Under the pieces are notes generated by a model, which saw nothing but the letters and a program-made list of their open reading frames with translations, was not told the DNA's origin and did no database searches. A DNA stretch of 64,000 bases from Patescibacteria group bacterium (GTDB taxonomy: Bacteria > Patescibacteriota > Minisyncoccia > UBA6257 > GWB1-50-10). Made by a program: the position numbers and the translations under genes. Of this stretch, positions 3,146 through 35,430 are shown piece after piece (position 1 is the first letter of the stretch; every line of letters starts with the position of its first letter). The stretch lies in NCBI GenBank assembly GCA_038065455.1, contig JBBTQX010000002.1, positions 6,779 to 70,778 of the forward strand. The letters are read 5' to 3'.

Positions 3146-3173
3146 TATTTAAATATAACATGGGCCCTAAAAT

Positions 3174-3258
3174 AAAAGGATCAGACGAATTAAAAAAGTG
3201 GGTAAGACTTGGCCTAGCGGCCCGGAGCGCACACTTTTTTGGTTCGGCTGATCCTTTT
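3174..3258 (-). terminator. nested inverted repeat / probable truB terminator
   Basis: AAAGGATCAG..CTGATCCTTT enclosing AAAAAAGTG..CACTTTTTT; T-runs on both strands; overlaps the truB stop codon. Confidence 0.4.
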
Positions 3259-4273
3259 AAGATATAGCACTTCCGGGAGGGACTTCCCTGTCTGGTTTCA
3301 ATAATACCGGCCCGCCGTCATTGGCCGCCAGGAGCATTCCTTGGCTCTCCAGACCCATCATCATTCGCGGCTCCAGATTCGCAACAACGATTATCTCGCG
3401 GCCAACCATCTCTTCCGGCAAGTAAACCTTCCCGACACCGGCTAGAATTTGTCGCGGTTCCGGTTCGCCTAAGTCCACTTTTAGCTTCAAAAGCTTTTCG
3501 GAACCTTCCACGCGTTCGGCCTCAAGCACTCTCGCGACCTTCATTTCTATCTTTTTAAATTCATCAAAATTTATGTTCATATTATTATATTTTTGTACCT
3601 CAGTGCTACAATTGATTGTAGCATCGGACTTTACGAGCTTCTCCAATTGAACGAGACTCAGGGATTCTTTTTCCGTAAAATCCCCCACTCTCGTCCTTTT
3701 GAGCGCCGCGAGATACGCGCCGGTTCCCAATTCTTTTCCGATATCGCGGGCCAAAGCCCTTACATAAACTCCTGGACCGGTCACGGCACGCAGTTCTAAA
3801 TAAGGCCACTCGTATTCCAAAATCTCAATCTCTTTTATCTCAGCTTCTCTTTCCAATAATACCGGCTTCTCGCCTTTTCTGGCAAATTTATAAGCTTCCT
3901 TACCACTCACCTTGATAGCGCTGTAAATGGGCGGAATCTGCTTGATTTTGCCGATGAATTTTTTTACCGCTTCTTTGATTTCCGAAAGAGCCGGCTTTCT
4001 GTCCGACACGGAGGTTTTCTCCCCCTCCTCGTCGTCCGTGGCGCTCGTCTCGCCCAATTTAATCTTGGCGAGATATTCTTTTTCTTTCTTCACTTCAATG
4101 CCCAATTTTTTCGTAGCTTCGCGGCCGACGCCCACGACAAGCACGCCTTCGGCCAAAGGATCGAGCGTTCCGGCATGGCCGACCTTCTCGCCTCCGGTAA
4201 TCCTCTTTATGCTCTGAACAATATCATTCGAGGTTGGGCCTTTCGGTTTATAGATAGCGAAGATTCCTTTCAT
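3257..4273 (-). CDS. truB: tRNA pseudouridine-55 synthase TruB fused to a C-terminal tRNA-binding (Myf/EMAP/CsaA-like OB) domain
   Basis: N-terminus KP.G.TS.D.V...K......KVGH.GTLDP.A.GVL; the C-terminal ~105 aa (KVARVLEAE..VEGSEKLLKLKVDLGE..) look like a tRNA_bind domain in place of the usual PUA domain. Confidence 0.7.
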   Translation of the reverse strand: MKGIFAIYKPKGPTSNDIVQSIKRITGGEKVGHAGTLDPLAEGVLVVGVGREATKKLGIEVKKEKEYLAKIKLGETSATDDEEGEKTSVSDRKPALSEIKEAVKKFIGKIKQIPPIYSAIKVSGKEAYKFARKGEKPVLLEREAEIKEIEILEYEWPYLELRAVTGPGVYVRALARDIGKELGTGAYLAALKRTRVGDFTEKESLSLVQLEKLVKSDATINCSTEVQKYNNMNINFDEFKKIEMKVARVLEAERVEGSEKLLKLKVDLGEPEPRQILAGVGKVYLPEEMVGREIIVVANLEPRMMMGLESQGMLLAANDGGPVLLKPDREVPPGSAIS

Positions 4274-5383: not shown

Positions 5384-6427
5384 TTAGGATAGGAGTGTAA
5401 ACTCGCGGCTCCGCGTTTCCAAATTGAAATAAGCGAATCCGAAAACAACGAGTATTTTGAAAATAATAAATGCCAATAGAGCGACAAACCAATATAAAAG
5501 AAAGAAAGCACTTTTTACCGTGAAGAAGAAAATAAACGAAACGGCCAACGGTAAAATCCAAGATGAACTGTTGAAAGAATTAAAATATTTCGCAACGATA
5601 TCATAAGCGAAATCGGCCGTTCCCTGAACGGGATTGAGATCCACAAACTGTTTTTTGAGGACTTCCAATAGCTGATCCGTGGCCTGATCGATGAATTTAT
5701 TCTGATCCTTCTGAGGCAAGGAACGAAAATCGGTCTCCGGACTTCCGGCGCTCACGCCCGGAATTTCCAATTTAGTCCGGCTTAATTTTTCGGCAGCTAG
5801 GCTCCGCAAAAGGTTTCGAACAGTTCCGTTCAAAGAAATACCCGGCACAATGACCCGCGCGACGGGTTCGCTTGCAGTAATGGTTCCCGACACTAGCCGC
5901 CGACCCATCGCTTCGGTGAATTTCCCCCATTCGAAATAATTGAGATAGAGAACGACCGAAAGGAATATCAAAAAGCCTGTTACGATTTTCGGCAGAAACA
6001 CTCTGGTGGTTTCAAAAAAATGGAGCTTAATGCCATTCAAAACGAAGTTCCGGCCGTGCTTCATCGCTTCGACAATGAAAACAAAAGCCACGAATGCTCC
6101 AATAAGAAGCGGAACGGACGTCTCCGGATAAACCTTATCCGGAAAAACGGCGAGCGCGGCGGCCACTTCCAAAAATGCGATAAGCGAAAGTTTTCCCAGG
6201 CCTTTTATGAAAAAAACCTGGAGAATAACCACTATCAAAAAGAAAGCGAAAGCGAGAACGGTCGGCCAGAAATAAACGTTATCCAAGCCGGAGATAAGGC
6301 GCAAAAAACCGGAGAAGGTCGCGAAGCTTCCCACGATTCCCAAAAAACCTAGAAGCAGTATCTTCCAAACACTGCGGTCTACTTCCGCTTCATGGGACTC
6401 ACTGGTTATTTGAAGGCTGGGTGTCAT
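5384..6427 (-). CDS. hypothetical polytopic membrane protein inserted between dnaK and dnaJ
   Basis: Multiple hydrophobic helices. Start set at the internal Met (MTPSL); it still overlaps the dnaK 3' end by ~29 nt. Confidence 0.4.
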   Translation of the reverse strand: MTPSLQITSESHEAEVDRSVWKILLLGFLGIVGSFATFSGFLRLISGLDNVYFWPTVLAFAFFLIVVILQVFFIKGLGKLSLIAFLEVAAALAVFPDKVYPETSVPLLIGAFVAFVFIVEAMKHGRNFVLNGIKLHFFETTRVFLPKIVTGFLIFLSVVLYLNYFEWGKFTEAMGRRLVSGTITASEPVARVIVPGISLNGTVRNLLRSLAAEKLSRTKLEIPGVSAGSPETDFRSLPQKDQNKFIDQATDQLLEVLKKQFVDLNPVQGTADFAYDIVAKYFNSFNSSSWILPLAVSFIFFFTVKSAFFLLYWFVALLAFIIFKILVVFGFAYFNLETRSREFTLLS

Positions 6428-8282
6428 CTTTTTTATTATAGAGGGCTTCCCCGATCTTTTGAAGCGAGGTGGAAAGTTCATTCGCCGCCGCCGTTATTGC
6501 TGCGGCATCGCTTCCTTCTTGAATTTCTTTTATTTTGGCGATTTTTGCATTCACGTCTTCTTTCACGTCTGCCGGGACTTTGTCCCCCGCGTCCTTCAGG
6601 CCCTTCTCCGCCGCGTAGACAAGCGACTCCGCCTGGTTCTTCGCATCGATGAGTTCGCGCTTCTTCTGGTCTTCCGTCGCATGTTCGGCCGCTTCTTTCT
6701 TGAGCTTTTCAATTTCGTCTTTATTCAAGCTCGTCGAAGCTTCGATTTTCACCGACTGAGCCTTGTTTGTCGCTTTATCTTTCGCGGAAACGGTAAGGAT
6801 GCCGTTCGCGTCGATATCAAAAGTTACTTCGATCTGGGGAACGCCGCGCGCCGATGGCGGTATGCCATCCAAAATGAATCTGGCCAATGTCTTGTTGTCG
6901 GCCATCATCGGACGTTCTCCCTGTCCGATGTGGATTTCAACCGAGGTCTGATTGTCCGCGGCCGTCGAAAAAACTTGAGTCTTCGCGGTTGGCATTGTGG
7001 TGTTCTTCTGAATCATCGGAGTGGCGACCGCACCCATTGTCTCAATACTTAAAGTGAGAGGTGTCACATCAAGGAGTAAAACTTCACCTTCGGTTTTACG
7101 TCCTTCTTTTTTAGCTAAAAGTATCTCGCCTTGAATTCCAGCCCCAATCGCCACCACTTCATCGGGATTGATACCTTGATGGGGATCCTTGCCGAAGAGC
7201 TTCTTCACGGCCTCCTGAATGGCCGGCATTCTGGTCTGTCCACCGACCAAAATAATTTCATTTATATCTGAAAATTTCAGACCAGCGCCCTTCGGAGTCG
7301 GCGAAGTGACCGCGTCTTTCACGAGATCAATGGAGTGATTGATCATATCGCCGACCAGAGATTCGAGCTTCGCCCGCGTGAGCTTCATCACTAGATGCTT
7401 TGGCCCCGAAGAATCGGAAGTGACGTAGGGCAGATTTATTTCGCTCTCGGCCGCCGTCGAAAGCTCGTGCTTCGCGCGCTCGGCCGCTTCCCGCAAACGC
7501 TGGAGTGCCAGAGTGTCCTTCGAAATATCGATGCCTTCCTGTTTTTTATATTCGCCCACGAGATATTCTATGATAACCTTGTCGAAATCGTCTCCGCCCA
7601 AATGAGTGTCGCCGCCGGTCGCCTTCACTTCCACCGTCTGTTCTTTAGTCTCCGAATCGTAACTCATTTCAAGCACGGATACGTCGAAAGTGCCGCCGCC
7701 GAAATCGTATACGACGATCTTCTGATTCTTTTCTTTCCCGAATCCATAGGCAAAAGCCGCCGCAGTCGGCTCATTGATAATGCGGTCCACTTTCAATCCA
7801 GCGATTTCCCCCGCATTCTTGGTCGCCTGCCTTTGGCTGTCGTCGAAGTAAGCCGGCACCGTAATAACCGCCTCATCAACCGTTTCTCCGAGTTTCGCCT
7901 CCGCATCTGCTTTTATTTTCTGCAAAACCATCGCGGATATTTCTTCCGGCTTATACCACCGGTCCGCCATTTTTATCTCCACGCCGCCCGTCGCCGATTC
8001 CTTTATCTCGTACGAAAGCCACTTGCGGTCGCGCTGGACCTCTAGATCCGAAAACTTCCGCCCGATCAAGCGCTTCACCGAATAAATGGTATTCTGCGGA
8101 TTCACTACGCCCTGCCGCTTACCCAGAAGACCTGTCAGACGCTCGCCTGATTTGTTGACTGCGACAATCGAGGGAGTGGTGCGCGCTCCTTCGCTGTTCT
8201 CCAATATTTTCCCTTCGCCGCCTTCCATCACCGCAACCGCCGAATTCGTCGTCCCCAAATCTATTCCCAAAATTTTTGCCAT
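6399..8282 (-). CDS. dnaK: molecular chaperone DnaK (Hsp70)
   Basis: IGIDLGTTNS, DLGGGTFD and the C-terminal substrate-binding domain; full length. Confidence 0.95.
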   Translation of the reverse strand: MAKILGIDLGTTNSAVAVMEGGEGKILENSEGARTTPSIVAVNKSGERLTGLLGKRQGVVNPQNTIYSVKRLIGRKFSDLEVQRDRKWLSYEIKESATGGVEIKMADRWYKPEEISAMVLQKIKADAEAKLGETVDEAVITVPAYFDDSQRQATKNAGEIAGLKVDRIINEPTAAAFAYGFGKEKNQKIVVYDFGGGTFDVSVLEMSYDSETKEQTVEVKATGGDTHLGGDDFDKVIIEYLVGEYKKQEGIDISKDTLALQRLREAAERAKHELSTAAESEINLPYVTSDSSGPKHLVMKLTRAKLESLVGDMINHSIDLVKDAVTSPTPKGAGLKFSDINEIILVGGQTRMPAIQEAVKKLFGKDPHQGINPDEVVAIGAGIQGEILLAKKEGRKTEGEVLLLDVTPLTLSIETMGAVATPMIQKNTTMPTAKTQVFSTAADNQTSVEIHIGQGERPMMADNKTLARFILDGIPPSARGVPQIEVTFDIDANGILTVSAKDKATNKAQSVKIEASTSLNKDEIEKLKKEAAEHATEDQKKRELIDAKNQAESLVYAAEKGLKDAGDKVPADVKEDVNAKIAKIKEIQEGSDAAAITAAANELSTSLQKIGEALYNKKDDTQPSNNQ

Positions 8283-8328
8283 ATTATTGTATTTTTGTTT
8301 ATTTTTATATTTAACCTTGACCTTTTGA

Positions 8329-8389
8329 CCGGGCAGTAGAAATTCGATCAGTTCTTCTGCCGTGTTGCAATCGAATTTTCACTGCCCGG
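8329..8389. repeat. E-family inverted-repeat element, short copy E1 (61 bp)
   Basis: CCGGGCAGTAGAAATTCGAT .. ATCGAATTTTCACTGCCCGG, near-perfect 22-bp arms; flanked by a TTGA direct repeat; the right arm encodes the last three codons and the stop of grpE. Confidence 0.6.
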
Positions 8390-8864
8390 TTGACAATTTC
8401 ACCCTGACGGGTTTTATGACTTTATTGTGCAACTTGTATCCTCCCGATACCTCTTCCGCTATCGTTCCCGGCGGCTCCGCGGCATTCACTTCGCCTATCG
8501 CTTCCGCCAGATTAGTATCGAAAGGGTCGCCGCGCTGAATTTTGATTCTTTCGAGGCCGTGTTTTTTCAAAATATCCTCGAGCTGACTCCTGATCAGCTC
8601 CACTCCTTTCTTCGCCGGATCGCCGTCCTTCAAGACCGAGAGGCTCAATTCGAAGCTATCCAAAGCGGGAATAAGGTCGGCTATGAGCATTTCATTCGAG
8701 AACTTGGCAAAGTTTTCCAGACGCCCCGCTTCTTCTTTTTTGTAATTAATCAGGTCGGCTTTCGCCCGCTTCCACCCGTTCAGATACTCCTCTTTTTCCC
8801 TTTCCAGTTTCGCAATCGGGTCTTCCGGAATATTATTATTATTTAAATCTTGTTCTTCGGACAT
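8379..8864 (-). CDS. grpE: nucleotide exchange factor GrpE
   Basis: Position between hrcA and dnaK, size, and GrpE-like C-terminal beta domain. Confidence 0.8.
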   Translation of the reverse strand: MSEEQDLNNNNIPEDPIAKLEREKEEYLNGWKRAKADLINYKKEEAGRLENFAKFSNEMLIADLIPALDSFELSLSVLKDGDPAKKGVELIRSQLEDILKKHGLERIKIQRGDPFDTNLAEAIGEVNAAEPPGTIAEEVSGGYKLHNKVIKPVRVKLSTGQ

Positions 8865-9009
8865 ACCAGGTTAGTAGAAACTCGATTGCAAATTAACGAT
8901 TTGCTGAATCGAATCATGATTAATATATTTAATTTGACCTTTCATATTATATTTTTCCATATCCATTGTTAATTTGACGGCAAATCTAATCGAGTTTTCA
9001 CTACCTGGC
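8865..9009. repeat. E-family inverted-repeat element E2 (~145 bp, MITE-like)
   Basis: ACCAGGTTAGTAGAAACTCGATTGCAAAT .. AATCTAATCGAGTTTTCACTACCTGG, with an AT-rich interior. It fills the whole grpE-hrcA spacer and abuts the grpE ATG and the hrcA stop. Confidence 0.6.
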
Positions 9010-9015
9010 ATGTTT

Positions 9016-9717
9016 TTAATTTTCCATTGATTTTTCGAGCGACTTTAAGAATCTTATCGGCTTCGTGTAATCCATCCGTTTCGGACCGATGGTAATCATC
9101 AGGAAATCTTCCGGCCCGCGATTGAAATAAGTGGCGAAAACGGAAATATGGGGACTCCGCGTGACCGGGCTCTGGCCCACGAAAACGCGCGGCCAATCTT
9201 TTTCCTTCTCCCACCAGGATTTATTTTCCAATATCCTTTCCGGCAATTTCTCGAAATCCCGCACCACCTCCACCAAATCTTTCTTGGCCACGGTATCGAG
9301 CTGTTCTAAAAGTTCCTCCAGTCCGCTGCCGAAAAATTCGCCTTCGTGAGGCAGGAATCCCACACCCATAAGACCGAGTTCTTCGGCCACCTCTTCCACG
9401 AAAGATTTTCTCCCGCCTCTCATAAAATCCGCGGTCAATTCTTTTAGGACATTCGAATCCTTTTCTTTTTTCGGCTCCTCAGTCAAAAATTGTTCGGCCA
9501 AGAAGCGATAGGCTTTGTCGGTCGGAATCCGCCCGCCCGAAGGATGTTTGCGGGAAAAGTAGCCGTCTTCGGCCAACTCGGAAAGCTCCAGTCGAATCAT
9601 GGCCGGCCGGATGCCAAAATCGTAGTTCTCAAAAAGATGGTCGGAGGTGACCGGCTGGCCCGTTTTCACGAAGTCCCGCACCGCCGCTTCCAATATATCT
9701 CTGCTCCTTTCCGTCAT
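9016..9717 (-). CDS. hrcA: heat-inducible transcription repressor HrcA (short form)
   Basis: N-terminal winged-helix region (ILEAAVRDFVKTGQPVTS) and position first in the hrcA-grpE-dnaK operon. Confidence 0.75.
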   Translation of the reverse strand: MTERSRDILEAAVRDFVKTGQPVTSDHLFENYDFGIRPAMIRLELSELAEDGYFSRKHPSGGRIPTDKAYRFLAEQFLTEEPKKEKDSNVLKELTADFMRGGRKSFVEEVAEELGLMGVGFLPHEGEFFGSGLEELLEQLDTVAKKDLVEVVRDFEKLPERILENKSWWEKEKDWPRVFVGQSPVTRSPHISVFATYFNRGPEDFLMITIGPKRMDYTKPIRFLKSLEKSMEN

Positions 9718-9718
9718 A

Positions 9719-9757
9719 GTGGGAATTATATATTAGCACTCAAATGTGTCAAGCGCC
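9719..9757 (-). promoter_or_regulatory. degenerate CIRCE-like operator overlapping a -10 box, upstream of hrcA
   Basis: On the minus strand: TTGGCGCTT-N9-GAGTGCTAA, then TATATAATT, then ccact and ATG. The right half is perfect CIRCE, the left half 6/9. The TATAAT lies ~10 nt from the ATG, hinting at a leaderless mRNA. Confidence 0.4.
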
Positions 9758-9765
9758 AATTGATT

Positions 9766-9921
9766 GGGATACCGTGCCCCTATTCCCTTCAGCACCGGGT
9801 GTCGCGGTTCTCCCGCGGAACCGCGCACCACTAAGCTCTCGGCGAAAAATCCACCCTTCTGGGTGGAGCCGAGCTTTTTCGCCTCCGAGATTTGCTTCAG
9901 GGAACACGGGCACGGTATCCC
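9766..9921. ncRNA. 156-nt GC-rich highly structured element closed by a perfect 14-bp inverted repeat (candidate ncRNA/riboregulator, or MITE)
   Basis: GGGATACCGTGCCC..GGGCACGGTATCCC closing helix, extended by TTCCCTTCAGCA/TGCTTCAGGGAA. Internal hairpins CGCGGTTC-tcccgcg-GAACCGCG and CTCGGC[..CACCC-ttct-GGGTGG..]GCCGAG; alternative pairing GGCGAAAAA/TTTTTCGCC; U-runs after the hairpins. Confidence 0.4.
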
Positions 9922-10099
9922 TTATTTCCAAAAAATTATTTATTTAACAAATATCCTTATTGCAACCTACATTTATCTAAATAAATATCAAATGAATAAG
10001 GGGTTATTATCCCAGAAAATGAAATTTTCTGATTAATTTTTAATGCTGCTGCGGTTTTTGCCCAATCTGAATCAAAGAGACAATGTATTATTTAATGTT

Positions 10100-10915
10100 C
10101 TACGGGCAGGTGGCGGTCGAGGTGGCGATAGCGCCAGTATTTGAAATACCCAAAAGGAAGCAGGTGCCGCCTGCCGATTTCAAAATGACGCCGTAAGCCG
10201 AATCGGAAAATCCGATATTCCCCGCCGCTTTAATGAGCGCATTGGTAGAAGGCGAAAAATTTACTCCCAAGCCGATCTGGCCATATTGGCCGCCGATTGA
10301 AACATTATTATTGAAATAGCCCGTGTACCACGGATTCACGGCTGTACCCAATGTAAGAGAACTAGAGGCGGCGGTGGGATAAACTGCCGAATCGAATTGG
10401 GCAGCCGAAACTCGAGCAATGGCTGTCTGAAGCGAACGAGTAAGTTGAGCGGAAGGAGTAGGCGAATTGTAAGTCATTGTGACGCCCAATTGAATGATGG
10501 CGAGCCCACCGGGATTTTCGTATTTGGTAGCCGTAAAACTATTGACGGTCACGTTGGAATTGGTAATGGCGACGGGCGTGCTTGATGGAATCACCGAACC
10601 CTCGCTCAAGTAAACCGCGGTACCGCTCGCGTAAATAAGGGTCGGGTCGAGCGTCGAGGAAGTCATCCTTAACTTGATAGTCGAGGTTGCGACGCCGCCT
10701 TCCATATCAATCAGGCTCGAATCGCGAACTAATTGCTGGACAGTGCCCGCGACGAAAGAAACTTGGTTGTTAACCTCATTCACGGAGTTTTGGCGAGTTT
10801 GGATCCTCGTAACCGAGAGCAAAATCGCCGTCAAAAACACCGCGCTCCCCGCGAAGATGGCGACATAAATAAGAAGTTCAATAAGTGAATAGCCTTTTTC
10901 TTCCTTGAAATTCAT
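10100..10915 (-). CDS. type IV pilin-like / pseudopilin (class III signal peptide)
   Basis: KGYSLIELLIYVAIFA prepilin cleavage/methylation motif after the internal Met; Ser/Thr-rich body. Confidence 0.65.
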   Translation of the reverse strand: MNFKEEKGYSLIELLIYVAIFAGSAVFLTAILLSVTRIQTRQNSVNEVNNQVSFVAGTVQQLVRDSSLIDMEGGVATSTIKLRMTSSTLDPTLIYASGTAVYLSEGSVIPSSTPVAITNSNVTVNSFTATKYENPGGLAIIQLGVTMTYNSPTPSAQLTRSLQTAIARVSAAQFDSAVYPTAASSSLTLGTAVNPWYTGYFNNNVSIGGQYGQIGLGVNFSPSTNALIKAAGNIGFSDSAYGVILKSAGGTCFLLGISNTGAIATSTATCP

Positions 10916-19491: not shown

Positions 19492-19612
19492 CCCGTTAGA
19501 AACAGGATGCGCTTAACAAGCACATCCGTCTAGATTCAAACGACTTTATTATTGCAATGTTCCCCTGTATTGTTTCCATGATATTTCTGAATTTGCCCGT
19601 TTCTAACGGGAT
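19490..19612. mobile_element. G-family MITE copy A (TIR ATCCCGTTAGAAACA / GTTTCTAACGGGAT)
   Basis: 13-15 bp TIR shared with the GIY-YIG element; flanks GGGATTCAT|..|ATTCATG (direct repeat ATTCAT). The left flank supplies the pbp2 ATG; the right TIR supplies the mreD stop. Confidence 0.75.
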
Positions 19613-28757: not shown

Positions 28758-28831
28758 TATACCCGGTATTACAATGTTTAGAAAAGTTGCTGGTTCATTT
28801 TTTTTTGATTAGGTTTGTAATACCGGGTATA
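28758..28831. repeat. long hairpin (17-bp perfect stem TATACCCGGTATTACAA / TTGTAATACCGGGTATA, 40-nt loop) in the murA 5' region
   Basis: Perfect inverted repeat 9 nt upstream of the murA start and 15 nt from the GIY-YIG element. Confidence 0.5.
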
Positions 28832-28846
28832 TTATTAAAGGTATGT

Positions 28847-29128
28847 ATCCCGTTAGAGACATTTCTATGTATTACAATTACGTTTTAAGAAGCAAAAAAG
28901 ATGGGAAATGGTATACTGGCTACACGAATGATCTACGGAAGCGCTTTAGCCAGCACAATAGCGATAAATTCCCTCAATGGACCAAAAATCGGGGTCCTTT
29001 TGAAATCATATACTATGAAGCCTGCAAAGATCTGCAAGATGCAAGGTCGAGGGAATATTATCTAAAAACAGGAATGGGTAAACGTTATATCAAAAATAGG
29101 CTAAAGCGCTTCCTGTCTCTAACGGGAT
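28847..29128 (+). mobile_element. G-family coding element: 282-bp unit with perfect 15-bp TIRs enclosing only a GIY-YIG nuclease ORF
   Basis: ATCCCGTTAGAGACA at 28847-28861 and TGTCTCTAACGGGAT at 29114-29128; AT-rich (~37% GC); flanks ATGTAT / ATGAAC; the TIRs encode the ORF's N- and C-termini. Confidence 0.7.
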
Positions 29129-29130
29129 GA
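28867..29130 (+). CDS. GIY-YIG nuclease family protein (YhbQ/YazA UPF0213-like, ~87-95 aa)
   Basis: YYNYVLRS..DGKWYTGYTNDLRKRFSQHN ... RGPFEIIYYE...AR.REYYLK. GIY-YIG motifs with the catalytic Arg and Glu in place. An alternative ATG at 28843 lies inside the left TIR. Confidence 0.7.
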   Translation: MYYNYVLRSKKDGKWYTGYTNDLRKRFSQHNSDKFPQWTKNRGPFEIIYYEACKDLQDARSREYYLKTGMGKRYIKNRLKRFLSLTG

Positions 29131-30371
29131 ACCTCAAAACCCGGCGAACTCTCTTTTACTTCTTCATTCTCATATTCGTCCTTGCGGGCGCTTATCTCCT
29201 CGCAACCGCCCAGGGGCTGGTCCTGGATTTCAAAAATCTGAAGATTACCGGCACTGGCGGGCTCTTTTTGAAGTACGTTCCGCCCGACGCGACTGTGGAA
29301 TTGAACGGCAAAAAAACCGATGTTTCGCCCGGCCTCGTTTCGAGCGGAATTTTCATCTCTAAATTAATTCCCGACGAATACCGGGTAAAGATTTCAAAAC
29401 CGGGCTTCTCTGCCTGGGAAAAGACACTCGCGGTTAAGAACGGCGCGGTGGCTTCGGCGAGCCAAATCAGGCTCTGGCCCGAAGTCTGGGATTTGAATGT
29501 CATTACGACGAGCTCCGTCCGGGATTTCCGGCTCACGGGTGCGGGTCTAGTACTCCAAGGAAAAAACGGAACTCTTCGGCTGGACGGATTTTCTTTGGGA
29601 AACAGGAGTGTCGCTTTGAGCGGGCCGGACTCGTCCCTCATCGTTACGACCGATGAAAAAGAAAATTTTGTAACCAATCTCGAAGATTTGTCACCCGCGC
29701 TCGATATCGTCCGGCTCTTTAATTCGCTGAAACAAAGCCAGTTGAATCTTCCCGGCACGATCATTCCTAAAAATTACTTCCTTCATCCCTTTAACGCCAA
29801 AATTCTCATCACGACCGGAAACGCGCTTTACTCGCTCGATATCAAAAGATTGAGACTTGAAAAACTGACCGATATGGCAGGAATTAAGAAGGCGGAATTA
29901 AGGGGAAACGAAATGTTTCTTTTCGATATGAAAGACAATATAACGACATTCAATCTTTTTCTCCAAACTGCCAGAATTTATGAATCGACCTCCACCGAAG
30001 CCATCGGAATAGGAGCGAGCCTGGCCGGCTTGCCGGCCCCCGACGGGAAAAAGATTTTTTTGCTTTCAAAAAACGACACGCTTTCTTTGAAAGTTTTGGA
30101 AAATTATTATGCCGACGGCGAAGTGAGAAAGGGCGATATGTGGCCCGTTTTTTCCGACCGGGGCAAAATAACGGATTTCAAATGGTTGAATGGCAATTCT
30201 AATTATGCGCTGGTACTTGCCGAAAAAAACTTGTTCATCGTTGAAACCGACCGGCGCACCCCGCAGAATATCCGACTCATATCCCAAGGAGTGGAAAAAT
30301 TCGCGACGGAGGGAAACGATCTCTATATCCTCAAAACCGACGGCACGCTTCTGAGGGCGAGTTTGAAGTAG
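29127..30371 (+). CDS. PEGA-domain envelope protein (hypothetical)
   Basis: N-terminal TM helix; PEGA-like segment (VPPDATVELNGKKTD...YRVKISKPGFSAWEKTLAVKNG). Its ATG is formed by the element's flank. Confidence 0.45.
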   Translation: MNLKTRRTLFYFFILIFVLAGAYLLATAQGLVLDFKNLKITGTGGLFLKYVPPDATVELNGKKTDVSPGLVSSGIFISKLIPDEYRVKISKPGFSAWEKTLAVKNGAVASASQIRLWPEVWDLNVITTSSVRDFRLTGAGLVLQGKNGTLRLDGFSLGNRSVALSGPDSSLIVTTDEKENFVTNLEDLSPALDIVRLFNSLKQSQLNLPGTIIPKNYFLHPFNAKILITTGNALYSLDIKRLRLEKLTDMAGIKKAELRGNEMFLFDMKDNITTFNLFLQTARIYESTSTEAIGIGASLAGLPAPDGKKIFLLSKNDTLSLKVLENYYADGEVRKGDMWPVFSDRGKITDFKWLNGNSNYALVLAEKNLFIVETDRRTPQNIRLISQGVEKFATEGNDLYILKTDGTLLRASLK

Positions 30372-33296: not shown

Positions 33297-33896
33297 TTAA
33301 CGCGAATAGAATTGGCCGACCACGTTTATATCGAAAGGTAGTTGCACTCCGGTAACGGGCGGTTTTGCCACGCACTCGCCTTTCAATTCCTCCGCTTTGA
33401 GCTTAAGCCACTCAGGCGGGGTGTATTGCTTCAACCGGAGTTGAATATCATCGAAAATCTTCGCCGAGCGGGATTCGGGCCGCACAGCAATAATGTCTTT
33501 AACCCTAACATAATAGGAAGGAATTGTCACTTTTCGGCCATTCACGTGGATATGGCCGTGGGAGACGAGCTGGCGGGCGATTCTCGGAGACTTCGCGAAT
33601 CCCAAAAGAAAAACCACGTGGTCGAGGCGGCTTTCGAGCTTGGTCATAATGCCGTCTTTGTCGGAATTCCGGAACATTCTCATCATCTGATGATTATTCA
33701 GCCCGTAAAGAATTTGGATTTTCTGTTTTTCCTGGAGCTGCTTTCCGAATTCGGAAACGGAGTGGCGCGCCTGGCCGTGCTGGCCCGGGCGGTAAGGATG
33801 GCGTACCATCGCGCACTTCGGCGAATTACAGCGGTCTCCCTTGAGGAAGAGTTTGATGCCCAGCGATCTTTCTTTTTTCTCTTTGATTCTTTTCAT
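33297..33896 (-). CDS. rpsD: 30S ribosomal protein S4
   Basis: Zn-ribbon CNSPKC, S4 domain. Start at the internal Met (MKRIKEKK), whose ATG is the flank of MITE B. Confidence 0.85.
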   Translation of the reverse strand: MKRIKEKKERSLGIKLFLKGDRCNSPKCAMVRHPYRPGQHGQARHSVSEFGKQLQEKQKIQILYGLNNHQMMRMFRNSDKDGIMTKLESRLDHVVFLLGFAKSPRIARQLVSHGHIHVNGRKVTIPSYYVRVKDIIAVRPESRSAKIFDDIQLRLKQYTPPEWLKLKAEELKGECVAKPPVTGVQLPFDINVVGQFYSR

Positions 33897-34018
33897 CCCG
33901 TTTAGAGACAGGATACGCTTAAGAAGCATATCCGTGAAGCATTAGCCGATTCGACTTTATTGGATTCTATTGATTGTTTGATAATCATGTTATTCATAAG
34001 TTTGATGTCTCTAACGGG
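33897..34018. mobile_element. G-family MITE copy B (122 bp)
   Basis: CCCGTTTAGAGACA..TGTCTCTAACGGG; flanks TTCAT|..|ATTCAT; subterminal hairpin GGATACGC-ttaagaa-GCATATCC. Confidence 0.75.
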
Positions 34019-34030
34019 ATTCATATTTTT

Positions 34031-34175
34031 ACCAGGCAGTGAAAATGCGATTGCAAATCGTGATTGAATCGACGATTCTCGCTATTTCCAATGACCTTTT
34101 ATTTATATTCATATGTTTTGATATTATGATGGTTTTCGATTTGAATTCAATCTAATCGCATTTCTACTGCCTGGT
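34031..34175. repeat. E-family inverted-repeat element E3 (145 bp)
   Basis: ACCAGGCAGTGAAAATGCGATTGCAAATCG .. AATCTAATCGCATTTCTACTGCCTGGT; interior homologous to E2 (GATTGCAAAT, TGAATCGA, TTGACCTTT, CATAT); ends on the rpsK stop codon. Confidence 0.6.
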
Positions 34176-34624
34176 TAAACCCTTCTGGTCTTGGCCGGAC
34201 GCGGTCCGTTGTGCGGAATCGGCGTCACATCCTTGATGGACAGTATATTCAAGCCCTTGCCGGCGAAAGAACGGATGGCGGAATCGCGGCCGCTACCCAC
34301 GCCGCGCACGAAAATCTCCACGGTATTCGGGCCGGTCTTTTCCAATTTCTGGGCAATGGCTTCGGCGACTTTGGAAGACGCGAAAGGAGTCGCCTTCTTG
34401 GGTCCGGAAAATCCCAAAGAGCCAGCGGACATCCATGTAATCACGGCACCCTTATCGTCGGTTACGGTAATAATGGTGTTATTATAGGTGGCTTGAATAT
34501 AGATACGGCCGTTTTCCCAGTGCTGTTTGGATGTGGACGAAGATTGCTTAGCCGGCGCCTTTTCGGCCGTCCCCGCTTCCTTCACCGCTTCGTCTTTGGT
34601 TTTTATGACTTTTTTCTTTCCCAT
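34175..34624 (-). CDS. rpsK: 30S ribosomal protein S11 (N-terminal lysine/alanine-rich extension)
   Basis: Conserved S11 core (A.I.ATFNNTI.T.TD..G....W.S.G..GF.G.KK.TPFAA). Confidence 0.85.
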   Translation of the reverse strand: MGKKKVIKTKDEAVKEAGTAEKAPAKQSSSTSKQHWENGRIYIQATYNNTIITVTDDKGAVITWMSAGSLGFSGPKKATPFASSKVAEAIAQKLEKTGPNTVEIFVRGVGSGRDSAIRSFAGKGLNILSIKDVTPIPHNGPRPAKTRRV

Positions 34625-35298: not shown

Positions 35299-35418
35299 CC
35301 CGTTAGAGACAGGATACGCTTAAAAAGCGCATCCGTGATATGTCGCTTGGTTTGATTATTCCGACCTGTTGGTTATTCATATTGATACATTATTCAAAAT
35401 TTGTTTGTCTCTAACGGG
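35299..35418. mobile_element. G-family MITE copy C (120 bp)
   Basis: CCCGTTAGAGACA..TGTCTCTAACGGG; flanks TTCAT|..|ATTCAT; hairpin GGATACGC-ttaaaaa-GCGCATCC; interior homologous to copy B (GTTATTCATA). Confidence 0.75.
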
Positions 35419-35430
35419 ATTCATAAAACT

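Follow-up and report, generated by a model that had tools for sequence, protein, structure and literature searches.

The 64,000-nucleotide stretch analysed here (referred to as the window; positions 6,779 to 70,778 of contig JBBTQX010000002.1, assembly GCA_038065455.1, from a Patescibacteria group bacterium) carries the chaperone operon hrcA-grpE-dnaK on its minus strand and, further along, the ribosomal protein genes rpsK and rpsD. Three copies of a short inverted-repeat element, here termed the E family, lie among these genes (Table 1): E1 between grpE and dnaK, E2 between hrcA and grpE, and E3 at the junction of rpsK and rpsD. The three copies had been described in a first-pass annotation of the window, and inspection of the sequence confirms that they exist at the positions claimed, with their limits slightly refined. 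E1, E2 and E3 are probably non-autonomous copies, resembling miniature inverted-repeat transposable elements (MITEs), of a family of tiny nuclease-encoding selfish elements which is widespread in Patescibacteria (candidate phyla radiation (CPR) bacteria of the Paceibacteria type). The E family appears to be new in kind, and the three copies in the window are ordinary members of it.

The arms of the E family are 20 bp long and have the form CC(A/G)GG(C/T)AGT(AG/GA)AAA(T/C)(T/G)CGAT. On the minus strand, which is the sense strand of the operon, E1 begins with AGTGAAAA, the G arm (8389 to 8370), and ends with AGTAGAAA, the A arm. The G arm of E2 is directed toward hrcA and its A arm toward grpE, the AGTAGAAA arm of this copy having one added base after GG(T), and in E3 the G arm comes first on the plus strand, so that this copy is reversed relative to the minus-strand operon. 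A fuzzy search of the whole 64-kb window finds exactly six E arms, and the indel-free arm core AGTRRAAAYKCGAT matches all six and no other site in the window, where 0.01 matches are expected from shuffled sequences. Each copy is composed of one AGTAGAAA arm and one AGTGAAAA arm, a regularity absent from the first-pass annotation, whose written terminus consensus matches only one of the six arms and fails on the other five because of the 1-nt indel in the E2 arm. The interiors of E2 and E3 are alignable, as had been reported, and run in the same orientation. All three copies are flanked by short repeats, which read CATA/CATG on the plus strand for E2 (identical at three of four positions) and, for E3, TTA/TTA, corresponding to the rpsK stop codon, or TTTA/TTAA if taken as 4 bp. 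Among the loci compared (designated by L numbers), the copy nearest to E3 is that of L105 (83% identical), which is ruled out as an orthologue, since it sits at a different locus, the rplN-rplX ribosomal-protein junction.

The sites of E1 and E2 are empty in six of the seven relatives compared (L110/L111, whose GrpE is 91% identical, L112, L195, L196, L197 and L198), in which the hrcA-grpE spacer is 4-9 nt and the grpE-dnaK spacer 11-24 nt long. The empty E2 site reads hrcA-TAA-AAA(T/C)-ATG-grpE in these relatives, and the empty sites are equivalent to the window sequence minus the element and one 4-bp repeat: ..AAACATG[E2]TATGTCC in the window corresponds to ..AAATATGGAA in L110, and ..TTGTCAA[E1]TCAAAAGGTCAAGGTTAA to ..ATATCAAAAGGTCAAAGTTAA in L112. 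Removal of E1 and one target-site duplication (TSD) from the window yields TTG TCA AAA GGT CAA GGT TAA (..LSKGQG*), matching the empty E1 site of L112 (ATA TCA AAA GGT CAA AGT TAA). The first-pass annotation had pointed out that hairpins conserved at the same operon positions in relatives would speak for an ancestral structure; the clean empty sites in six of seven relatives favour a mobile element instead, and E1 and E2 are shown by this comparison to be insertions and not ancestral regulatory hairpins. The last three codons and the stop of grpE (ACC GGG CAG TGA) are indeed provided by the G arm of E1. As compared with E1-less relatives, in which GrpE ends in ..KLSKGQ(G/S/DNK), the protein of the window ends in ..KLSTGQ, and its tail has therefore been rewritten by the E1 arm.

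E1 is situated within a block common to L110 (the 3' half of grpE together with dnaK) of 95-100% identity on a background of 83-88%, and its gain or loss is very recent, because L110 lacks E1 inside this nearly identical block. The mosaic ancestry of positions ~6450-8650 relative to L110, in which this block is embedded in surrounding genes of lower identity, suggests that parts of the chaperone operon have recently been exchanged by homologous recombination.

The spacer between hrcA and grpE is taken up by E2, as originally described, from the base adjoining the grpE ATG up to 7 nt from the hrcA stop. An upstream open reading frame (uORF; Table 1) runs from the old grpE start codon through the element, where the 1-nt insertion in the A arm of E2 creates an in-frame TAA 6 nt ahead of the regenerated grpE ATG; this insertion variant recurs in other copies, nearly always in the A arm. 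The uORF is called by gene finders. However, it has been rejected as a genuine small protein, since a Pfam search of its product gave no family match, its frame is closed early in E3, and the copy in the seventh relative, L114, differs from that of the window by four replacement and two silent changes. It is probably a by-product able to couple translation rather than a conserved protein, and a side effect of E2 on translation through these 46 codons between hrcA and grpE is possible.

An arm-pattern scan of species-representative genomes identified at least 105 loci, nearly all of them in metagenome-assembled genomes (MAGs) of Patescibacteria, the hosts among the matches listed comprising Paceibacteria, Harrison-, Lipton-, Jorgensen-, Kaiser-, Yanofsky-, Colwell- and Portnoybacteria as well as bins labelled otherwise. 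The set of paired elements contains at least 95 copies from 46 MAG assemblies plus the window, which bears out the expectation that further copies of a mobile element would be found elsewhere. Candidatus Harrisonbacteria RIFCSPLOWO2_01_FULL_44_18 has at least 11 paired copies. The 95 paired copies listed fall into size classes of 59-86 bp (30 copies), 117-165 bp (58 copies) and 288-327 bp (7 copies), and the arms of window and database copies show approximately 1.7% mismatches apart from the fixed central dinucleotide. Identical 4-bp flanks are present in 61 of the 95 copies listed, while 16 have flanks matching at three of four positions, and the most frequent duplication among them is TATG. 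At unusual sites both flanks are changed together (TCAA/TCAA, TGGA, AAAA, TCCA, CGTA, CGCA, TATA and CTTG), and because the flanks covary at such non-canonical sites, the tetramer is a duplicated target and not a part of the element. The flanking repeats noticed in the first-pass annotation are thus real, but its description of the duplication as short and variable does not apply to the family, in which it is 4 bp long and usually TATG.

Some E copies stand in tandem exactly 4 nt apart. Tandem pairs with a TATG spacer are found in L011 (6110-6377), L013 (3547-3815), L034 (6541-6807) and L018 (4143-4603), and, as judged from this arrangement, the duplicate flanking a copy already in place has served as the target of a further insertion. 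Among approximately 148 elements there is not a single AA or GG arm pair. Solo arms, whose partners were sought up to 3.5 kb away, are attributable to contig ends, decayed partners or fossils; this search disclosed no conventional transposase parent, which has been rejected as a candidate. One partnerless G arm (L045, 6309-6332; also L041 and L023) is conserved in three MAGs and gives the end and stop codon of the upstream gene (..TAC TGG ACC GGG TAG), the next ATG following 2 nt on; it resembles a fossil, left by an old insertion that became fixed in the ends of genes.

In most copies an ORF of 60 aa or more begins at the ATG beside the A arm (e.g. 233, 412, 573, 772 and 1064 aa, and grpE), and the elements therefore sit on host start codons. 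The G arm is upstream relative to the host gene in 58 cases and the orientation is reversed in 6. The base before the target ATG is T at 57 of 61 sites, as against ~35% at the gene starts of the window. Shine-Dalgarno cores are found upstream of only 5 of 61 target ATGs, while TATAAT-like hexamers end -7 to -10 from the A of the ATG at 30 of 82 sites; with Shine-Dalgarno cores rare and TATAAT boxes near the ATG, many targets therefore look like the starts of leaderless genes. The insertion flanks of L005-L194, with few Shine-Dalgarno cores and TATAAT-like boxes ending ~7 nt before the ATG, suggest that, in these Patescibacteria, a large proportion of the genes may be transcribed as leaderless mRNAs. 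In L079 (1185-1246, 62 bp) and L037 (3921-3985, 65 bp), the frame of the upstream ATG crosses the element into the host gene (..IEFLLPGM..), and these host proteins may carry an element-encoded N-terminal extension.

Full-length members of the family consist of a 20-bp G arm, CC(A/G)GGYAGTGAAAAYKCGAT, an ATG 5-20 nt inward, an ORF and an inverted A arm, which differs from the G arm solely by AG in place of GA at the centre. The ORF of the long class encodes 88-92 aa and is opened either by the frame of the host ATG or by an internal ATG, and its stop codon abuts the A arm. When read from the upstream ATG, the G arm gives ATG CCA GGT AGT GAA AAY TCG, equivalent to MPGSENS... The ORF product is a GIY-YIG domain (Pfam PF01541, E values of 1.9e-18 and 4.6e-17, above the curated cut-off), in which Y6, Y17, G19, R27, H31 and E63 (numbering of the nuclease alignment) are invariant and make up the Tyr, Tyr-x-Gly, Arg, His and Glu signature of these enzymes. 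The nearest solved structures are those of the UPF0213 proteins BH0048/EF2693 (1zg2, at 2e-11, and 1ywl) and of SLX1, and the element ORF is a predicted nuclease of the Slx1/UPF0213 clade. At least 900 clusters of this nuclease are present in the protein database. About 40 of the 47 proteins sampled begin with MPGSENS(I/T)xIMF(Y/F/H)YVY, and two begin with MPGSRNS, which corresponds to the A arm.

When metagenomes were scanned with a profile of the nuclease alignment, E arms were located at 53 of the best 80 nuclease loci, beginning 27 nt before the internal Met and always as a G arm paired with an A arm. These 80 loci contain 48 distinct full-length E elements of 298-363 bp, 31 of which, as listed, possess a perfect 4-bp TSD (TATG in 24 of the 31). 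An ORF of at least 60 aa follows in 26 of 29 full-length copies flanked by ATG, and the nuclease is in frame from the host ATG in 21 of the full-length copies listed. The median dN/dS of 44 intact nuclease ORFs is 0.115 (dS ~1.5); given this low value and the low mismatch rate of the arms, protein and arms are therefore both under selection. A diverged branch, whose protein is 66-69% identical, has the arms CCCCGTAGT(AG/GA)AATTTC(A/C)AAT and keeps the TATG flanks and the AG/GA heterology. Between the paired arms of approximately 185 loci of up to 8 kb there is either nothing or the nuclease ORF, and no transposase-sized insert. Among the loci already fetched, no empty sites were recovered beyond those of E1 and E2; a full-length empty site is provided by the 317-bp element at the dnaX start of L129 (TATG/TATG), the site being without an element in L199 (DnaX 85% identical, ..GTATG) and L200 (70%, ..CATATG). 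A blastn search of a full-length element against phage and plasmid collections, which hold few CPR sequences, gave no match.

The window also contains a sister family, D, which is probably the first inverted-repeat family of the first-pass annotation and is represented by one ORF-bearing and three gene-less copies (Table 1). The D arms differ from the E arms, while the TSD ATGA and the placement on start codons parallel the E design. The D nuclease ORF, recovered with a hidden Markov model of the E nuclease, is in frame from the host-side ATG, and its TGA and the start codon of the following gene (29127-30371) overlap as ATGA. Both D and E thus have a cognate nuclease, an ATG-containing 4-bp TSD and the same expression logic, and this is the main reason why the nuclease is read as the element's own enzyme. 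The position of the D copy adjoining E3 implies that rpsD would start at 33896 and not at 33929, and that the 40-aa ORF at 33902-34024 is likely to be spurious.

Table 1. Elements, target duplications, genes and control signals in the window (18 features)
Feature	Position	Strand	Description
E1	8329..8389	-	61 bp, gene-less; hairpin RNA -31.4 kcal/mol, z -5.7
E1 TSD, left copy	8325..8328		TTGA on the plus strand, TCAA in gene sense
E1 TSD, right copy	8390..8393		TTGA; perfect match to left copy
E2	8866..9008	-	143 bp, gene-less, at grpE start codon; hairpin RNA -39.7 kcal/mol, z -5.2
E2 target duplication, upstream copy	9009..9012	-	CATG in sense; original grpE start codon, now uORF start
E2 target duplication, downstream copy	8862..8865	-	TATG in sense; holds present grpE ATG 8862-8864
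E2 uORF	8871..9011	-	46 codons, MPGSENSIRFAVKL...SSFY*; from old grpE ATG through E2, TAA 6 nt before grpE
E3	34032..34174	+	143 bp, gene-less, rpsK-rpsD junction; hairpin -42.5 kcal/mol, z -6.7
rpsK stop codon	34175..34177	-	TAA in sense; repeated as E3 flank, second copy 34029-34031
D-family ORF-bearing element	28847..29126	+	Arms ATCCCGTTAGAGAC...GTCTCTAACGGG; 95-aa GIY-YIG ORF 28843-29130; hidden Markov model E value 1.8e-21
Gene-less D element	33897..34020	-	Adjoins E3; ATGA/ATGA in sense; on the predicted true rpsD start 33894-33896
Gene-less D element	19492..19612	-	TSD ATGA; start codon of gene 17638-19491
Gene-less D element	35299..35420	-	TSD ATGA; start of MKVRAS gene (L36-like), downstream of infA
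dnaK	6399..8282	-	627 aa
grpE	8379..8864	-	161 aa; C-terminus altered by E1
hrcA	9016..9717	-	233 aa
Operon control region	9725..9759	-	12/12 sigma-70 promoter TTGACA-16-TATAAT (9752 to 9725) overlapping CIRCE-like operator
rpsK	34175..34624	-	

From the association of the nuclease with the arms and their co-divergence, it is inferred that gene-less copies would be moved by nuclease supplied in trans. The nuclease may recognise the arms and make, or use, 4-nt staggered breaks just outside them, while the central AG/GA heterology and the non-palindromic TATG target would set the polarity of the element. Insertion duplicates the 4-bp target, mostly TATG containing the host start codon, often that of a leaderless gene with a -10 box ~7 nt upstream. 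The upstream copy of the ATG would retain the transcription and translation signals of the host and read through the G arm into the nuclease; landing on a (leaderless) start would in this way supply expression to an ORF with no promoter or Shine-Dalgarno sequence of its own. The downstream copy would regenerate the host start, to be reached by re-initiation or coupling, and the host gene would be spared. The copies in the window would be co-transcribed passengers, and E2 has converted the 4-nt hrcA-grpE junction into a 143-bp hairpin with a 46-codon uORF and 6 nt, plausibly preserving translational coupling. More tentatively, and with somewhat more reserve than assent, the family may be regarded as a new autonomous class of mobile DNA of ~0.3 kb, with a minimal Slx1-like GIY-YIG nuclease as its only mobility protein, targeting of TATG at start codons, gene-less derivatives, and precise excision or spread that would explain copies at the same sites.

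Several points weigh against this interpretation. No nuclease-only DNA transposon is known to us, nor do we know of a hydrolytic GIY-YIG enzyme that joins DNA strands, so that joining would have to be carried out by a host ligase, by a repair pathway or by an unseen partner. Of the two types of nuclease gene, only the D type is present in the window, and a source in trans is therefore assumed for E1-E3. The bias toward start codons could owe much to the survival of harmless insertions and not to targeting, and any role of the invariant AG/GA heterology is hypothetical. Simple transposition, moreover, does not predict the copies of E1 and E2 in the distant L114, which are 96-97% identical and lie at the same sites within unconverted flanks.

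The L114 copies bring homing into consideration, whereby the GIY-YIG protein would cut empty alleles and the element, with or without its ORF, would be copied into the same site from the filled allele of a related cell, new sites being rare. The hrcA, grpE and dnaK genes of L114 are 76%, 71% and 80% identical to those of the window at the nucleotide level, yet E2 (95.8%) and E1 (96.7%) are both found in L114, each at the site it occupies in the window and flanked by identical TSDs, including the non-canonical TCAA, whereas six closer or similar relatives are empty. The E2 interior was not found outside the window and L114 among the ~190 loci sampled, the recent recombination block is common to the operon and L110, and GIY-YIG enzymes are the classic homing nucleases (PMC1564403). 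Homing, however, leaves no TSD and needs homologous flanks, whereas a 4-bp TSD is the rule here and many unrelated host genes are occupied. Identity between the window and L114 is 90-100% only inside the elements and 53-83% at the edges; the high identity stops precisely at the limits of the elements, neither E1 nor E2 being accompanied by a co-conversion tract, and the nuclease belongs to the Slx1-like clade, while known homing enzymes belong to the I-TevI/UvrC+ clade (PMC1564403). Homing as the general explanation is thus considered unlikely, and the sharing with L114 may reflect either a homing-like lateral spread with almost no co-conversion or frequent precise loss together with unusual constraint. 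Pairing of the interior, as a guide, with its own flank, which would account for copies at shared sites, was tried and rejected, the longest common word being 7.48 nt versus 7.43 nt with the flanks of other elements. It is also quite improbable that the E elements are ordinary MITEs of an insertion sequence with a DDE-type transposase and a 4-bp TSD, the GIY-YIG ORF being a passenger. Terminal inverted repeats, a TSD of fixed length and size classes are the textbook signature of MITEs, and several DDE families yield 4-bp duplications, namely IS5, IS701, IS1380 and piggyBac. Yet the arm pairs at the ~185 loci enclose nothing other than the nuclease ORF, if anything, and this ORF lies at a fixed distance from one arm, usually in frame, with its stop against the other. 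Arms and protein have, moreover, diverged together in the E, CCCCG-variant and D families, which is not expected of a passenger in three arm families.

A regulatory function had been proposed in the first-pass annotation, according to which the hairpins are, or have become, RNA regulators of the chaperone operon, such as attenuators, processing sites or stability elements. The transcribed strand folds into very stable hairpins (-31 to -42 kcal/mol, z of -5 to -7), the copies of E1 and E2 in the window and in L114 have diverged unusually little, and the E2 uORF is open in both and ends 6 nt before grpE. However, the statement that the elements occupy the very place expected for CIRCE/HrcA-dependent control finds no support: when CIRCE (TTAGCACTC-N9-GAGTGCTAA) was searched for, the sole CIRCE-like site (9733-9759, with 3 mismatches, all within one half) was found together with the promoter upstream of hrcA, the canonical place, and the E arms did not match. 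The role as attenuator or mRNA-stability element fares no better. A scan of 8000-10100 for intrinsic terminators called none at E1 or E2, the sense strand after the stem reading TCAAAAGG for E1 and TATGTCCG for E2, with no U-run. Folding of the non-transcribed strand gives hairpins of equal stability, and arm transitions compatible with G.U pairing number 14 on the sense and 15 on the antisense strand, an absence of strand bias that rules out RNA-level selection on the stem. The interiors are unrelated between copies; Rfam 15 at gathering thresholds matched only tRNA in the window and none of the E elements, and a permissive Rfam scan of 8250-10100 gave only a chance match to a microRNA hairpin (E 0.48). 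With E1 and E2 absent from most relatives in addition, a regulatory role is very improbable. A relation to repetitive extragenic palindromes (REPs) and bacterial interspersed mosaic elements mobilised by a REP-associated tyrosine transposase (RAYT, of the Y1 HUH type), or to palindromes derived from IS200/IS605, is hardly credible. The E elements share with these an imperfectly palindromic form, a conserved site of non-Watson-Crick pairing in the stem, a GTAG motif in one arm, and orientation-biased insertion beside a 4-nt motif. Y1 transposition, however, makes no target duplication, and because the E duplication is real, as the covariation of the flanks demonstrates, the E elements are not REP/RAYT or IS200/IS605 derivatives; no ORF resembling RAYT or TnpA was seen in the vicinity of the arms, and the one linked to them is GIY-YIG.

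The interpretation of E1-E3 as gene-less copies of a nuclease-encoding element can also be set beside known systems. MITEs and their parent insertion sequences are similar to the E family in short size, terminal inverted repeats, fixed TSD, multiple copies, empty sites and the existence of a longer coding relative. The coding E member, however, is only ~320 bp long and encodes a GIY-YIG protein of ~90 aa and no DDE, serine, tyrosine or HUH transposase, and, unlike those of MITEs, the E termini always differ by the central AG/GA, with insertions concentrated on start codons in one orientation. All structural features of MITEs are present, while a parent with a recognised transposase is not. Standalone Slx1-like/UPF0213 proteins (BH0048, EF2693 and SLX1) consist of the same minimal domain as the E nuclease, and SLX1 cuts branched or structured DNA, an activity that would suit a palindromic substrate. 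In contrast to UPF0213 genes, the E gene is enclosed by inverted repeats and a TSD, it is found in some related genomes and missing from others, and derivatives without the gene exist. The palindromic elements of Rickettsia, enterobacterial repetitive intergenic consensus sequences and the neisserial Correia elements are co-transcribed palindromic repeats of 60-150 bp in operons or gene ends, which sometimes add codons, as E1 does to grpE, but they are not linked to a nuclease gene, their termini are different, and they do not prefer start codons. Homing GIY-YIG genes (T4 seg and I-TevI-type) are, like the E element, selfish small nuclease-only genes between host genes; however, they have one cognate site each and lack terminal inverted repeats, TSDs and gene-less derivatives, and their enzymes possess DNA-binding domains and belong to the UvrC+/HEase clade, whereas the E nuclease is a minimal Slx1-like domain (PMC1564403). 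The E family does not conform to this type, its sole homing-like trait being the same-site sharing with L114. According to a survey published in 2006, the standalone Slx1-like GIY-YIG proteins of prokaryotes are repair factors inherited vertically, and the selfish members belong to the UvrC+ clade (PMC1564403). In one paper, GIY-YIG genes are among those predicted to have been transferred horizontally from Patescibacteria to other bacteria. As a mechanistic analogy only, piggyBac and IS1380 duplicate a preferred 4-bp tetranucleotide and have exactly restored or untouched empty sites, but they use a DDE transposase and the palindromic TTAA, whereas E insertion is polar, occurs at the non-palindromic TATG and involves no DDE enzyme.

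No description of such an element was found in the open-access full-text literature, and no insertion sequence or DNA-transposon superfamily is known to us to use a GIY-YIG enzyme. If the nuclease mobilises the element, the E family would rank with the smallest DNA elements reported to mobilise themselves and would constitute a GIY-YIG-based type of transposon. It would also change the view that the standalone Slx1-like proteins of prokaryotes are repair factors passed on vertically (PMC1564403), and would explain many of the small genes annotated in CPR genomes as GIY-YIG nuclease or putative endonuclease, together with spurious ORFs beginning MPGSENS... The strategy of settling on a start codon, borrowing the expression signals of the host and restoring the ATG would be that of a parasite of very compact genomes, and a compact protein recognising a 20-bp site and acting at a fixed 4-bp offset would be a candidate tool. 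As to the annotation of the window, the 46-aa ORF of E2 and the 40-aa ORF of the neighbouring D element should not be gene calls, the GrpE C-terminus should be recorded as element-derived, and the rpsD start should be placed at 33896.

Other repeats were observed in the window and in the loci compared. A 74-bp palindrome with perfect arms (TATACCCGGTATTACAA ... TTGTAATACCGGGTATA) is located at 28758-28831, just upstream of the D nuclease copy, and seven full-length E elements with the TSD TGGA (L122, L155, L156 and L160-L162) have inserted into similar small palindromes (cttattacTGGAccgggtaata); these sequences suggest a putative third repeat family and nested insertions. The interval between a pilin-like gene and the hrcA promoter contains a G+C-rich inverted repeat of 156 nt on the minus strand (9766-9921) with 29-nt arms (GGGATACCGTGCCC...) and a terminator-like hairpin at 9867-9850, which shares 48-64% identity with L110 and has no Rfam match. 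A further inverted repeat at 3173-3259 has 28-nt arms that are 89% complementary and 31 nt apart (TAAAAGGATCAGACGAATTAAAAAAGTG / CACTTTTTTGGTTCGGCTGATCCTTTTA), and its sequence is unrelated to the E and D arms.

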